In this document: piece by piece, positions 49,861 to 56,059 of the stretch | How the letters are laid out: every line of letters starts with the position of its first letter | Position numbering within the stretch: position 1 is the first letter of the stretch | Source: a virus | DNA: 64,000 bases | Virus record (IMG/VR): IMGVR_UViG_3300020576_007358 | Strand: one strand, 5' to 3' | Translations under genes and position numbers: made by a program | The notes under the pieces: model-generated | What the model was told of the DNA's origin: nothing | Databases searched by the model: none | Seen by the model: only the letters and a program-made list of their open reading frames with translations

Positions 49861-50622
49861 GTGAAGTATATTCATGGTGTTGAAGCCATGAAATCAAGAG
49901 AAAAAGTTTGTGACTGGTGCCATAATCCTTTTATTGATAAATCAAAAGGTAATTGGTGCCGCACATGTTCAAAAAACTGTCGTAATCAACTTCGAACGCA
50001 AAATATGAGAAAAGGTGGCGCATTTGAATGGGATGAAGAACGACGTAAGAAAATTGGTGAAATAACCAAACAGAATCTACTTTCAGGAAAAGTAGAAAAT
50101 CCGTGGTCTCGTAATGAGGTCAAAGAAAAAATTCGTCAGACGAACCTTAAAAAGTTTGGTGTTTCGAACTGGAGACAGACGAAAGAGGGTCGTGAAAGAA
50201 CTATTACGTTCAATAAGAAACGAATTCGTTCGCGAGAAGAACGTCGAAAACATAGTGATAATGCTCGAAAACAAATGAAAGGTGGTCTCAAATCACGAGG
50301 AAAGGCCGGGAAGCGAGATGATCTTCCTGGATTTTATCGCAGTTCATGGGAGGCAAATTACGCACGAATTCTTATCCACCAGGGAAAATCTTGGCTATAT
50401 GAACCGAAAACGTTCGAGCTCGCAAGTGGGATTTCTTACACGCCAGATTTCTATGTTGATGGTTGTTTCATTGAAATCAAAGGCTGGATGGATGATCGGT
50501 CGAAACGTCAACTCGACGAATTTACAATTGAGTATCCAAACGAGAGGTTGCAAATTGTTGGTCCGAAGGAATATTATAGCCTTCGACAACAATACGCGTC
50601 ATTGATTAAGGAATGGGAATGA
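49861..50622 (+). CDS. Homing endonuclease-like protein (zinc finger, basic repeats, PD-(D/E)xK core YTPDFYVDGCFIEIKG).
   Basis: ORF track. Sits between the two dnaE 5' copies. Confidence 0.5.
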   Translation: MKYIHGVEAMKSREKVCDWCHNPFIDKSKGNWCRTCSKNCRNQLRTQNMRKGGAFEWDEERRKKIGEITKQNLLSGKVENPWSRNEVKEKIRQTNLKKFGVSNWRQTKEGRERTITFNKKRIRSREERRKHSDNARKQMKGGLKSRGKAGKRDDLPGFYRSSWEANYARILIHQGKSWLYEPKTFELASGISYTPDFYVDGCFIEIKGWMDDRSKRQLDEFTIEYPNERLQIVGPKEYYSLRQQYASLIKEWE

Positions 50623-50732
50623 AAATTAACGATTCAAACAACAGAAAGGAGGTATCCCTAGAAAACTCTGTGCGCACTCCGAAGCGATTTGTTGGTTTGC
50701 ATAATCACACAGGGTTTTCGTAGGGGATTTAA

Positions 50733-52596: not shown

Positions 52597-55500
52597 ATTC
52601 GTTGAAATTGACAGCATTTCCATTGACGAAGAAACACCTGACGTATATGACATAACAGTTGAAGATACACATTGTTTTTTTGCTGATGGTTCGCTAGTCC
52701 ATAATTGCATCGGCGGGTTTCCCTCTTGGAGCGTATTCCAAGTGCTTCAGGGAATTTCGTTCGATAATCTCAACCAGTCGCTCCTTGACGACAAGGCTCT
52801 TCTTGATAAGTGCGTTGATGCTGTCGGAAATACGTACGACATGATGGTGTCTGCGGTTGGTGAAGGAAATTACTTCCTCGAGCTGCAGTTCAACCGTCTG
52901 CCGGCGCAGAACCTTGTCAACCGTGCAATCATTGAGTTTGCAACCAGAAATGGTTTGCAAAAACAACTTGTTGTCACTGGAGATGCACACTACTACAATC
53001 CAGACGTCTGGAAGGAGCGTGAGCTCTACAAGAAGTTGGGTTGGATGAACTACCAGACGATCGATCCCAATTCACTTCCAAAATCTCGAGACGAGCTGAA
53101 GTGCGAACTTTACCCAAAGAACGCGCCTCAGATGTGGGATGAGTACTTGAAGTCGAAGGTCGATACGTCTTTTTACGATGATCAGATCATCTGTGATGCA
53201 ATTGAGCGAACCCATGACATCGCGCATCACCTCATTGGTGAGGTTAAACCAGATCGATCGCAAAAGTTTCCAACTGAGCGCCTCATCCCACCAGGTGAGA
53301 AGTCATTCAACCATCTCGTGAAGTTGTGCAAGGATGGGATGGTGAAGCGTGGGCTCGATGGCAAGGATGAATATCTTGATCGTTTGAAAGAAGAGCTCGG
53401 CGTCATCAAGCAGATGAAGAATGCGGATTACTTCATCTCGTACCAAAAGATCATCGAGCTGGCGCGGAAAGTAGTTTTGGTAGGACCTGGGCGAGGCAGT
53501 GGCGCCGGATCTCTTGTTGCGTACGTGCTGTACATCACCGACCTAGATCCGATCAAGTGGGACCTACCTTTCTCTCGATTCCTCTCCGTGCATCGTCAAG
53601 GTGCGCCAGACATTGATAGCGACGTCTCTGACCGCGATAAAGTTCTTGATCAGCTGCGAAATTTCTTTGGTTACGAGAACGTCGTTCCAATCTCGAACTA
53701 CAATGCTTTCAAGGTGAAGAGTCTCTTGAAGGATGTCAGCAAGTTCTATGGCATTCCCTTCGATGAAGTCAACGCCGCGACTAGAACTGTCGAAGACTCT
53801 GTTCGCCGCGCAACGATGAAGGAAGGTGATGACAAGAACCTATTCGTGCTCACGTACGATGAGGGTTTGAAGTACGACAAAGCTTTCTCAGACTTCATTG
53901 CACGGCACCCTGAAGTTGGCGAATCTATGAACGTTCTGTTCAAGCAGAATCGTTCTCTTGGACGTCACGCAGGTGGTGTTCTAATTGCTGACGATCTTCC
54001 AAACAAGATGCCCCTGATCACCAGCAAGGGTGAACCGCAGAGTCCTTGGGTAGAAGGTGTCAACTTCAAACACCTTGAGAAGATCGGAAATTTCATCAAG
54101 TACGACATTCTTGGCCTTGAAACGTTGAGGTTGATCGAAAGAACGATCGAACTGATCCTCATCAAAGAGGGAAATGCAGCACCAACGTTCGATGACATCA
54201 AGACTTGGTATGAAAACAACATGTCACCTGATGTCATCGATCTTGACGATCAGAAGGCATACGAAACTTACTGCGAAGGGCGTTGGGCTGGCGTATTTCA
54301 ATGTACAGGAAAAGGCGCTCAGCAACTTTTCAAGAAGGCTCGGCCAAAGAGCATCATCGATATCGCAGCTTTGACGTCCATTTATCGACCGGGTCCGCTA
54401 GCGGCTCACGTTGACAAGTTGTGGTTGAAGCATGAAGTTGAACCGTACGACTGGGGTCACCCGCTCATCAACTCTACGTTGAAAGAAACACGTGGGTTGC
54501 TGGTGTTCCAAGAGGGCGTCATGGCTCTTGTCAACAAAGTCTCTGGCTTTCCGCTGTCAGAAACTGACGAGGTTCGACGTGCTATCATGAAGCGCAGCAT
54601 CTCAGGCGGTGAAGCTGCGAAGAAGAAGATGAAGGAACTTGAAGACAGCATCGTTGCTGGTGCTGTGAAGAACGGCGTTCCGGAAGCAACTGCTCGCAAG
54701 ATGTATGAAACGATCTGTTTCATGAGCGGTTACGGTTTCAACAAGAGCCATGCAGTTGCTTACGCAATCGACTCGTACTGGTGTGCCTGGTTGCTAACGC
54801 ACTACGAAGAGCAGTGGTTGTGCGCTTATCTCGAGTCCATGTCAAACACCCCAGAGCAGCGAGCAAAAGCTTTCAGCGAAGTGAAGGCTTTGGGCTACCA
54901 GATCGTCCCAATCGATATCAACCAAGCTGCGCTTGGTTGGACTGTGCTGCCCGGCAAGAAATTGATGCCATCGATGACAAGCTGCAAGGGTGTTGGTGAT
55001 TCAGCAGTTGAAGAGATCATGGAAAACAGACCTTACGAGGCAATTGAAGATCTGCTGTGGGATGATGAATTCAACTGGAGGCACAGCAAGTTCAACAAGA
55101 GGGCTCTAGAAGCTCTCATCAAGATTGGTGCTTTTGGTTCAATGAACATCGTTGGTGAAGGAAAGCTGTTCAGCAGCTACAAGCACATGCACGATGTCAT
55201 CGTTGGATCTCACGTTGAGACAGTGACGAAGAAGAGGAAAGGTGAAGTTTCAACGTTCGAAGCTGAGATAGATCATAATGCTCTGATAAAGCGACATCCC
55301 AAGAGCGATCCAACTGAAGGTTTGAAGAACTTCTTTGAGCTTGTTCGAAAGTACGCTGGGCAACCTGATTGGTCTTCTATCGAGAAGGCTCAGAACATGG
55401 TTGAAGTGTTCGGCACTTTGGATGTGACAGCGATGATTGATCCTCGGTTGCTCGATGCCCTAGACGGGAAGGGAGTAGTTCCAGTCGAAGATGTTGAGCT

Positions 55501-56059
55501 CGGCGAGATAAAAGTTTGCTGGTTCGTCGTCACTCCTACTTCACCCAAGAAGGGTGCAAAGCCCGTGACTGGTGTGAAGCGCAAGACAAAGAACGGAAAA
55601 GAGTACGTTCAGATCTTTGCAACTGGTCCGACAGGCAAGCCAAATCGCATCAGCGTGTGGGGTTGCAAAGAGCTGCTTCAACCGTTCACGTTGTACTGCG
55701 CTGAAGTTGAGAGGAACGAGTTTGGAATGTCGACGGCGGTGTTCAAGATGAGAAAATTGGGATTAGCGCTTGCTGCCCATCTTCAGATTCTTGGAATCAC
55801 CAGCGCTCCAGTTGTATCCACCGCCGACAGCACCGGGTCCACCACCATGAGAGAATCCAGTTGGATTTCCCCACGCAGATCCCATGCCGGTTCCACCGCC
55901 GCCCGAGCCTGCGAACGGATTCCTGCCGTGCGCTCCAGCTCTAAATCCTCTGACGCTCTTTGTCACGTTTCTGCCAACAAACTTGAACCCAAGATCGCCA
56001 AGTTCTTTCTTGATGTGCGCAAGATCGCTAGCACCAGCTTCAGAGACTTCCATCTTTGA
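52547..56059 (+). CDS. dnaE: Intein C-half (...DVYDITVEDTHCFFADGSLVHN) fused to the DnaE C-terminal piece (CIGGFPS... through polymerase core and OB fold). The distal ~100 codons are low-complexity and overlap a convergent ORF.
   Basis: HN|C junction at 52706. Pol III alpha motifs (GRGSGAGSLVAY, PDIDSD, FNKSHAVAYA). Confidence 0.6.
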   Translation: MTNSSNQSMTAMQMTTEFVEIDSISIDEETPDVYDITVEDTHCFFADGSLVHNCIGGFPSWSVFQVLQGISFDNLNQSLLDDKALLDKCVDAVGNTYDMMVSAVGEGNYFLELQFNRLPAQNLVNRAIIEFATRNGLQKQLVVTGDAHYYNPDVWKERELYKKLGWMNYQTIDPNSLPKSRDELKCELYPKNAPQMWDEYLKSKVDTSFYDDQIICDAIERTHDIAHHLIGEVKPDRSQKFPTERLIPPGEKSFNHLVKLCKDGMVKRGLDGKDEYLDRLKEELGVIKQMKNADYFISYQKIIELARKVVLVGPGRGSGAGSLVAYVLYITDLDPIKWDLPFSRFLSVHRQGAPDIDSDVSDRDKVLDQLRNFFGYENVVPISNYNAFKVKSLLKDVSKFYGIPFDEVNAATRTVEDSVRRATMKEGDDKNLFVLTYDEGLKYDKAFSDFIARHPEVGESMNVLFKQNRSLGRHAGGVLIADDLPNKMPLITSKGEPQSPWVEGVNFKHLEKIGNFIKYDILGLETLRLIERTIELILIKEGNAAPTFDDIKTWYENNMSPDVIDLDDQKAYETYCEGRWAGVFQCTGKGAQQLFKKARPKSIIDIAALTSIYRPGPLAAHVDKLWLKHEVEPYDWGHPLINSTLKETRGLLVFQEGVMALVNKVSGFPLSETDEVRRAIMKRSISGGEAAKKKMKELEDSIVAGAVKNGVPEATARKMYETICFMSGYGFNKSHAVAYAIDSYWCAWLLTHYEEQWLCAYLESMSNTPEQRAKAFSEVKALGYQIVPIDINQAALGWTVLPGKKLMPSMTSCKGVGDSAVEEIMENRPYEAIEDLLWDDEFNWRHSKFNKRALEALIKIGAFGSMNIVGEGKLFSSYKHMHDVIVGSHVETVTKKRKGEVSTFEAEIDHNALIKRHPKSDPTEGLKNFFELVRKYAGQPDWSSIEKAQNMVEVFGTLDVTAMIDPRLLDALDGKGVVPVEDVELGEIKVCWFVVTPTSPKKGAKPVTGVKRKTKNGKEYVQIFATGPTGKPNRISVWGCKELLQPFTLYCAEVERNEFGMSTAVFKMRKLGLALAAHLQILGITSAPVVSTADSTGSTTMRESSWISPRRSHAGSTAARACERIPAVRSSSKSSDALCHVSANKLEPKIAKFFLDVRKIASTSFRDFHL

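Follow-up and report, generated by a model that had tools for sequence, protein, structure and literature searches.

Stop-filled gap and split intein in dnaE of an uncultured giant phage: candidate ribosomal hopping combined with trans-splicing

We analysed the dnaE gene, coding for DNA polymerase III alpha subunit, in a stretch of 64,000 nucleotides (nt) from an uncultured giant phage (IMG/VR record IMGVR_UViG_3300020576_007358); this whole stretch is referred to as the window. The gene has probably been invaded by two independent selfish endonuclease elements, in which case intact polymerase would require both ribosomal hopping over a stop-filled gap near the 5' end and protein trans-splicing further downstream. 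The second element, a split intein with a Vsr-like endonuclease gene between its halves, has an architecture that is already published (PMC2677866), and the split-intein finding alone is therefore less novel. The stop-filled gap is the more unusual feature and apparently undescribed; no report of bypass in dnaE was found in open-access PubMed Central and bioRxiv.

Stop-filled gap in the PHP motif and its upstream cassette

The anatomy of dnaE was read from six-frame open reading frames (ORFs) and direct translation. Codon 35 of the gene is UAG, and the next in-frame start is only ATG 50826, 31 codons downstream. A previous sequence-only reading of this DNA took the N-terminal dnaE ORF as continuous, which is contradicted by in-frame TAG 50721 and TAA 50730. 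Decoding would resume at CCC 50736, where TCA CCC TTT GAC GGC encodes S-PFDG. The gap splits the canonical PHP metal-binding motif H-x-H-T-G-F-S|P-F-D-G exactly between S and P, and together with the proposed landing codon its 12 nt constitute a 15-nt insert relative to uninterrupted relatives (HNHTGFSPFDG). The approximately 1,100 codons that follow the gap retain all DnaE domains.

Fifteen of 16 close relatives lack the gap (among them L003 and L004, with sequence around CACACGGGTTTTTCACCGTTTGACGG), and the sixteenth, L005 (309-kb contig), carries a 7-nt insert, TCG|TAATGCG|CCC, at the same place. The 15-nt insert was found again in 7 further independent assemblies, which rules out assembly error as its source.

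To describe variation at this site, dnaE 5' ends were collected by pattern scans of viral and metagenome DNA, one of which required a stop after the Ser codon and two of which did not. Since the metagenome scan contributes only the matches listed, variant and locus counts are lower bounds. Combined, the scans yielded at least 101 distinct dnaE 5' ends and, with take-off codon, gap, landing codon and resume codon considered together, at least 42 unique combinations. Gaps of 2-13 nt thus occur at the same dnaE site in at least 42 distinct variants from viral and metagenome contigs, in all three frames. In all 42 listed variants a stop directly follows the Ser (TCN) take-off codon (TAA 20, TGA 12, TAG 10), and this rule holds too for variants from the scans without stop requirement. 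The triplet preceding the point of resumption is likewise compatible with the take-off tRNA in 42 of 42, and x-[FYM]-D-G then follows in whichever frame. This landing triplet is identical to the take-off codon in 11 listed variants and another UCN, read by the same tRNA-Ser according to standard wobble rules, in 16; landing UCN codons readable by the take-off tRNA-Ser thus amount to 27 of 42, with none needing other tRNA-Ser. Identity at positions 2 and 3 is seen in 12, wobble compatibility at position 3 in one, and UUG landing after UCG take-off (G.U pair at the middle position) in two, as well as in L287. Control triplets shifted by 1-3 nt fit the landing rule in only 0-13 of the 42.

The leader preceding the gap was examined in the same collection. 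For P-x-[RK]-F-V, upstream of the pattern-fixed part, the amino acids are kept and synonymous codons are used without restriction (TTT 33, TTC 32; four codons for Pro and six for Arg). Such a pattern implies that the leader is translated as protein and, judging by these codons, it is under protein-level purifying selection.

It is most likely, given these sequence rules, that ribosomes hop over the stop-filled gap. We propose that, after 34 codons, translation stalls with UCG occupied by peptidyl-tRNA-Ser and UAG in the A site; this tRNA would then unpair and, after the mRNA has slid by 15 nt, re-pair on UCA, so that decoding could resume at CCC. The product of such a hop would read ...HNHTGFS-PFDGLG..., with predicted junction peptide FVGLHNHTGFSPFDGLGYPNEHFDFCR. 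With slightly less confidence than for the double invasion of the window gene, we think it likely that phage dnaE hosts a large, diverse and unrecognised family of endonuclease-linked programmed hops, in which tRNA-Ser would leave a UCN codon followed by a stop and land 5-16 nt downstream, once per dnaE 5' end. L308 and L311, where the dnaE motif is HAHTGAS or HAHTGRS, not ...GFS, also contain gaps of this kind, some 100-200 nt past an endonuclease match; search patterns based on GFS therefore undercount the gap family. When the hop pattern was run against bacterial and archaeal genomes (596 Gb), 45 matches came up, all of them chance and none in dnaE, so that no clue to a host or prophage was obtained.

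Directly upstream of the leader lies a free-standing homing-endonuclease-like gene, whose TGA stop overlaps the dnaE ATG (ATGA). Its product combines N-terminal CxxC and NUMOD-like repeats with a C-terminal T7-endonuclease-I-like PD-(D/E)xK domain (YTPDF...IEIKG). The family profile aligns with phage T7 endonuclease I along YTPDF...E.KG (PDB 1m0d, E=1.6e-10), 12 of 17 family members have a Pfam Phage_endo_I match, and W154, E155, D187, E196 and K198 are invariant. Among the loci listed, this EndoI-like family is found directly upstream of dnaE in 35 of 65 interrupted but in 1 of 27 uninterrupted cases (Fisher p=3e-6). Interrupted genes also have longer leaders (median 30 versus 19 codons), in which an E-K...E-[NK]-x-V stretch is loosely conserved. 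We suggest that the 5' cassette consists of the EndoI-like endonuclease gene and a replacement dnaE 5' end, the latter comprising the extended leader, the motif RFVGLHNHTGFS and the 12-nt stop-filled gap.

Comparison of strains is informative as to the behaviour of this cassette. In L286 the endonuclease gene is mostly deleted and the gap is kept, with two substitutions that preserve both stops and the landing codon (TAAGGGAATTAA TCA). Between flanks that match the window at 99-100% identity, L279, L281 and L283 contain a different cassette, with a 267-amino-acid (aa) endonuclease and the arrangement HNHTCF TCT|TAATG|TCA ACG. The block that diverges between strains extends from about 48600 to about 51000, reaching 250-300 nt past the gap, and looks like a co-conversion tract. 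It holds the 3' end of a UDP-sugar epimerase/decarboxylase-like gene, the EndoI-like gene and the first approximately 400 nt of dnaE. A GIY-YIG/NUMOD3 endonuclease gene (48966-49694) is also located in the block and overlaps the epimerase/decarboxylase-like gene by 82 nt.

If T4 mobA/gene 60 is a guide, the gap probably disrupts the target site of the cassette's own endonuclease and would thereby protect the genome. A sample drawn by endonuclease similarity (best 80 of 474 relatives) contains approximately 32 genes that precede interrupted dnaE and approximately 17 that precede uninterrupted dnaE; in five of the nine scored by pattern, the motif Ser is AGY. Another sample was assembled by DnaE similarity, without selection for gaps; its sole interrupted locus is L005, retaining an endonuclease-gene remnant, and its only other locus with the EndoI-like family upstream is L002, which is uninterrupted. 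Gapless dnaE downstream of EndoI-like genes was noted in L306, L307, L315, L316, L326, L327, L329, L333, L340 and L002, and in 6 of these 10 loci the motif Ser is encoded by AGC or AGT, not TCN. Such a Ser codon may be an alternative escape from the endonuclease.

Split intein, its endonuclease and their spread

The second interruption had been recognised from sequence alone as a PHP segment (...NIVVTSA) followed by an intein N-half with a stop at 51620, an endonuclease gene at 51637..52596, and an intein C-half fused to the remaining DnaE (IGGFPS...). ORFs and translation bear out these coordinates: a 319-aa ORF is present at the position of the endonuclease gene, and Cys+1 at 52706 directly follows the intein end at 52705. 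The N-half reads CIHPDS...LRVTPDHKVYT...SIHQ, with the Cys1 codon at 51315 and TAG at 51618-51620. A perfect hairpin spans this stop and a GGUGGA Shine-Dalgarno-like sequence 5 nt before the endonuclease ATG, burying that ribosome-binding site. The start of the C-half is uncertain (TTG 52547, or ATG 52571, 52580 or 52586), and its ORF overlaps that of the endonuclease by 11-50 nt accordingly.

Both pieces have the domains expected for a broken dnaE. By Pfam, the N piece contains PHP and Intein_splicing, and the C piece has matches to Intein_splicing, DNA_pol3_alpha, the finger domain and HHH_6. On the PHROG DnaE profile, the N piece covers up to position 180 and the C piece starts from position 185, and the coverage is thus continuous. 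Eight aligned uninterrupted viral-contig relatives (51-74% amino-acid identity) read ...GNLVVTSACIGGMPAY... where the window has ...NIVVTSA|intein|CIGGFPSW.... Since these relatives read through the site without a break, the junction VVTSA|CIGGF is seamless, as had been anticipated, and a survey of relatives revealed 21 viral contigs without intein at this site. The view that the architecture is real and not an assembly artefact holds as well, for both the layout and the 15-nt insert recur in independent JGI, ENA and Logan assemblies.

All residues needed for splicing are in place: C1 (CIHPDS...), TPDH, VYDITVEDTHCFFA, and SLVHN|C with terminal HN and C+1. The NrdJ-1 intein is splicing-active, and the joined intein halves of the window align end to end with this split intein (PDB 8ubs, E=6e-15), their closest solved relative. 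The halves are separated between blocks B and F, where endonucleases are usually inserted. Allelic split inteins, with the same splicing blocks kept, occupy the VVTSA|CIGGF site in three other contigs (L287, L288, L289). By its sequence, the window dnaE is a fractured gene with a split intein and a new member of the published class. The N-extein/intein-N and intein-C/C-extein polypeptides are predicted to associate and to trans-splice at VVTSA|CIGGF. Spliced DnaE would measure about 150 kDa (227 aa of N-extein and a C-extein frame of 1,117 codons), or about 139 kDa with a C-extein that stops at the homologous end.

Other fractures of dnaE were observed in related contigs. L006 (8515-10587) contains a different one, at approximately residue 840, where a Vsr-like endonuclease accompanies a related split intein; the same type of element has colonised several positions of dnaE. 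In L005 (IMGVR_UViG_3300037010_002844, 6044-12812) dnaE is broken at least four further times besides the 5' 7-nt gap. Inteins are found there at ...GPARG|C, ...VHR|C and ...GAPDID|C, and endonuclease genes of several kinds lie between the pieces, one of them coding for 577 aa on the opposite strand.

The endonuclease between the window's intein halves had been called Vsr-like, and this assignment is supported by a 10-member family profile, which matches Vsr (1cw0, E=3e-4) and also the nuclease domain of I-Bth0305I (3r3p, E=3e-3). As a single sequence, the window endonuclease shows a weak match to E. coli Vsr (E=0.08). E204, D230, E241, H248 and D250 are invariant in the family and constitute the EDxHD signature (PMC3239194); the catalytic domain spans approximately residues 191-306 of 319. 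Pfam DUF559 matches 7 of the 10 family members, the window member being below the cut-off. The allelic inteins of L287 and L288/L289 hold homologous endonucleases with 47-57% identity.

Distribution of this element among contigs points to recent mobility. The endonuclease protein is identical on 18 contigs. Across 8 independent assemblies, the whole 1,391-nt element (51315-52705) has zero nucleotide differences from the window, whereas extein flanks differ at 13-78 positions per 575 nt on the 5' side and at 9-67 per 895 nt on the 3' side. Moving outward from the intein, the first mismatch is met at 40 nt on the 5' side and at 12 nt on the 3' side. These 8 contigs were selected for an identical endonuclease protein, which cannot explain identity of synonymous sites or of the intein halves. 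Zero differences inside the element together with diverged flanks are, as read from these alignments, the footprint of recent homing. Spread of the split-intein element would be driven by the Vsr-like endonuclease, the activity and specificity of which are predicted.

Alternative explanations and relation to known systems

Several alternatives to the proposed hop have to be weighed. The gap might be an inactivating lesion that leaves a 5' pseudogene remnant, with DnaE either truncated (e.g. starting from ATG 50826) or substituted by another polymerase. Gene callers indeed begin the N piece at ATG 50826, a family-A polymerase domain or fragment is encoded in the window (17255-18475), and the 3' end of dnaE is irregular too. 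Yet a product from 50826 would miss the PHP-barrel strands with the metal ligands H-x-H and D, and the segment 50736-50825 is still conserved in frame. A lesion is also hard to reconcile with at least 42 variants at one site that all obey the stop-first and compatible-landing rules, or with conserved leader amino acids in the face of free synonymous change. Survival of the gap in the endonuclease-deleted strain L286, with stops and landing codon kept, counts against it as well, and we regard a lesion as quite unlikely. It is very unlikely that the gap is solved by +1, -1 or +2 frameshift or by stop readthrough or suppression, giving DnaE with a few extra residues. One shift could correct inserts of 5, 7, 8, 10 or 11 nt (e.g. 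S-NA-PFDG in L005), and readthrough could deal with a single in-frame stop (UCG UAG UCG). However, no one type of shift suits every gap size, and inserts of 9, 12 and 15 nt with two in-frame stops (window, L028, L042, L024, L033) would need double readthrough; because of such double stops, a single frameshift cannot serve all variants. Neither mechanism predicts the landing-codon rule and the exact S-x-F-D-G spacing. Furthermore, all three stop codons terminate ordinary ORFs in the window, and no tRNA gene is present in it, so that no phage suppressor or hop-prone tRNA is visible there. Reassignment of stop codons was considered separately and is ruled out, since approximately half of the gaps shift the frame and all three stops are in normal use.

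Leader and remaining DnaE could alternatively be made as separate polypeptides by termination and re-initiation and assemble non-covalently, as in Aeh1 NrdA. Endonuclease-split genes whose products assemble without intein are known (PMC3045599), and the UUG landing codon (2 of the 42 listed variants and L287) could act as a start. In nearly all variants, however, the codon at or after the gap is UCN, ACN or GCN, which is no start, the window offers its next in-frame start 31 codons downstream, and a free peptide of 20-50 aa with one PHP-barrel beta-strand is an unlikely subunit. We therefore consider re-initiation highly improbable. We attach even less probability to removal of the insert at RNA or DNA level before translation, be it as a mini-intron, by editing or by direct-repeat slippage. 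As a short direct repeat, the take-off and landing triplets could in principle mediate slippage, and the T4 gap has reportedly been proposed by Bonocora et al. to derive from a degenerate group I intron. Against this, no Rfam family (no intron and no other RNA) was detected in 48-57 kb, inserts of 5-16 nt are much shorter than any known intron, take-off and landing triplets have only two bases in common in 12 variants, and the insert is present consistently in assemblies from many samples. As for the second element, the fracture by the Vsr-like endonuclease may be real and the intein halves may no longer splice, leaving DnaE as a non-covalent two-piece enzyme or non-functional. Trans-splicing is predicted here from sequence, and the start codon and ribosome-binding site of the C piece are unclear. 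The catalytic positions (C1, T-x-x-H, H-N, C+1) are nevertheless all intact, allelic inteins of diverged phages retain the same blocks, and the closest solved relative, NrdJ-1, is a fractured-gene split intein of Dassa et al. Loss of splicing thus appears unlikely.

Hopping over the gap followed by trans-splicing remains our preferred interpretation, and several observations weigh against it. The hop is deduced from sequence rules, the stimulatory signals known from T4 gene 60 are not evident, and its efficiency could be low. The gap site folds in the window with a free energy of -14.7 kcal/mol (z -2.7), but a take-off stem-loop is not enriched across the family (68 interrupted versus 29 uninterrupted sites, Mann-Whitney p=0.18), and no structural signal is therefore claimed; nor is there any universal mini-Shine-Dalgarno sequence across variants. 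Approximately one third of landing codons mismatch at codon position 1. Gap variants are phylogenetically related, and their counts overstate independent events. The endonuclease upstream of approximately 17 uninterrupted dnaE genes means that self-immunity, should the gap confer it at all, can also be reached in other ways. No EndoI-like family member is found directly upstream in about half of interrupted loci, which may reflect loss or replacement. Finally, absence of a stop at the homologous end of dnaE casts some doubt on clean expression.

With respect to the split intein, cyanobacterial DnaE (Ssp, Npu) likewise contains a naturally split intein in Pol III alpha. This is inserted after residue 774, its halves are far apart in the genome and no endonuclease is involved; in the window, by contrast, insertion follows approximately residue 232, and the halves are adjacent with the endonuclease gene between them. 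The earlier placement of the insertion in the PHP domain, distant from the cyanobacterial split site, is thus correct. NrdJ-1 (8ubs), which is the best match to the joined halves and is likewise broken between blocks B and F, is inserted in another host gene at another site, and its sequence similarity to them is distant. Novikova et al. (PMC4760082) noted that bacterial PHP domains contain points of intein insertion. Dassa et al. 2009 (PMC2677866) reported the fractured-gene layout, with DnaE broken by split inteins at new sites in three loci, a Vsr-like endonuclease family, translational-control hairpins upstream of endonuclease genes and 3' overlap of the endonuclease with the intein-C ORF. 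Our element shares with these genes the hairpin over the endonuclease start, the 3' overlap and a phage replication module as context, and the DnaE-2 endonuclease (domain 196-315) is similar to the window endonuclease in size and domain position. Their genes are known as read-level fragments, whereas the window element, the insertion site of which may coincide with one of their three DnaE sites, lies in a complete 314-kb phage contig. Nucleotide identity of the element across diverged dnaE alleles is new relative to the published fractured genes.

The stop-filled gap finds its closest parallel in the T4 mobA/gene 60 bypass cassette, analysed by Manning & Atkins (bioRxiv 10.1101/2022.08.31.505936). 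In both systems a homing endonuclease gene is immediately upstream and overlaps the start of the downstream ORF, and the cassette supplies an N-terminal extension together with a copy of host sequence. In both, the take-off codon is followed immediately by an in-frame stop, the same tRNA can read the landing codon, the gap is not tied to one frame, invariant residues are encoded at the site, and the gap is kept in some genomes after endonuclease loss. The host gene is a topoisomerase gene in T4 and dnaE here; tRNA is Gly or Asp versus Ser; gaps measure 20-50 nt in gene 60 versus 2-13 nt in dnaE (12 nt in the window), where no take-off stem-loop is conserved; and dnaE is not split in two by its 5'-end cassette. 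MobA is an HNH-family endonuclease, and the T7-endonuclease-I-like nuclease thus belongs to a different family. The T4 cassette is reportedly also the subject of Bonocora et al. 2011. Judged by nuclease family, host gene and gap length, the dnaE cassette parallels that of T4 and is not homologous to it.

To our knowledge, natural bypass is otherwise known only from gene 60-type topoisomerase cassettes, Hau3 terminase and yeast mitochondrial elements. The short-range hops across stop codons that Weiss et al. 1987 reportedly observed in the laboratory, low-efficiency artefacts of reporter constructs, resemble the proposed hop in that a single stop is bypassed and peptidyl-tRNA re-pairs at a nearby similar codon. 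Such re-pairing at short range (about 10 nt) is shared also by the terminase of Streptomyces phage Hau3, whose 10-nt inserts with a rare UUA codon were proposed to be regulatory (PMC10732093); in that case there is no linked endonuclease, and examples are few.

Studies of programmed bypass have rested for decades on one homologous family (T4 gene 60) and a few isolated cases. If our interpretation is true, dnaE would provide a second, independent origin of a mobile cassette that combines endonuclease with ribosomal bypass, and the first natural, obligatory short-range hopping over stop codons. Its more than 40 natural variants would amount to a mutagenesis series, covering 2-13 nt, all frames, three stops and several take-off/landing pairs, and would support repeated origin of bypass gaps as self-immunity devices of homing endonucleases. 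Gene callers truncate gapped dnaE at the gap, which entails mis-annotation throughout metagenome databases. The fractured-gene part adds a complete-genome example, together with population evidence for recent homing of the split-intein/endonuclease unit, in which the element is unchanged and alleles just outside it differ by 2-14%.

Feature coordinates, 3' end of dnaE and gene context

Table 1. Features of the dnaE locus (positions in the window)
Feature	Position	Strand	Basis
Free-standing homing-endonuclease-like gene (EndoI-like), 253 aa	49861..50622	+	family profile, Pfam
dnaE leader, 34 codons (MKINDSNNRKEVSLENSVRTPKRFVGLHNHTGFS), ending at proposed take-off Ser UCG 50718-50720	50619..50720	+	translation
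Coding gap UAG GGG AUU UAA with two in-frame stops, proposed to stay untranslated	50721..50732	+	sequence
Proposed landing codon, Ser UCA	50733..50735	+	restores PHP motif
Remainder of dnaE N-extein (PHP domain, ends ...NIVVTSA)	50736..51314	+	Pfam, PHROG, relatives
Split-intein N half, 101 aa (Cys1, block B TPDH), and TAG stop	51315..51620	+	Pfam, translation, NrdJ-1 match
Hairpin, 9 bp perfect, UCCACCAAU-AGUU-AUUGGUGGA	51610..51631	+	folding
Vsr-like (EDxHD family) homing endonuclease gene, 319 aa	51637..52596	+	family profile
Split-intein C half (...VYDITVEDTHCFFADGSLVHN)	52547..52705	+	translation, Pfam
DnaE C-extein, Cys+1 to homologous C-terminus (...STAVFKMRKLG)	52706..55765	+	Pfam, PHROG, relatives
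Run-on of dnaE frame past homologous end, over convergent gene	55766..56059	+	relatives

Of the dnaE span assigned by the sequence-only reading, 50619-56059, the start is retained, whereas the end lies approximately 100 codons beyond that of homologous DnaE. In relatives the stop immediately follows ...FK(V/M)K(E)I(A), a point corresponding to about 55762-55765; here that stop is absent and the frame runs on for 39 or 99 codons depending on strain (stop at the equivalent of 55879 or at 56059). A convergent Gly-rich ORF of 167 aa (55763-56266, minus strand) abuts the homologous end of dnaE with its own stop. It has no Pfam or PHROG match and no homologue in the close viral-contig relatives L001-L021.

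The window encodes a replication module with RNR, RecA, dUTPase, FEN, DnaB-like helicase and PNKP. No near-identical DNA was found for it among GenBank phages, and the best match in a search of isolate-phage proteins was below 30% identity, indicating no cultured relative. The dnaE gene had been counted as the third in the window with an endonuclease gene between intein halves; the dUTPase gene is indeed fractured likewise, and the gene of the DnaB-like helicase probably so. Fractured dUTPase (21751-23700) comprises an N part with Hint domain (21751-22326), a gene for TnsA-like PD-(D/E)xK endonuclease (22332-23267), and intein-C with the C part of dUTPase (23245-23700). In the probable fractured helicase gene (24580-27677), an upstream ORF without Pfam match (24580-25368) is followed by an endonuclease gene with zinc finger, NUMOD3 and MTES_1575-like nuclease (25274-26458) and by an ORF with intein and DnaB_C matches (26436-27677). 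A further ORF of 391 aa (33350-34525), located in a low-GC stretch, has TnsA-like and DUF7487 nuclease matches and a C-terminal dUTPase_2 match, and may represent another endonuclease insertion beside, or fused to, a nucleotide pyrophosphatase gene.

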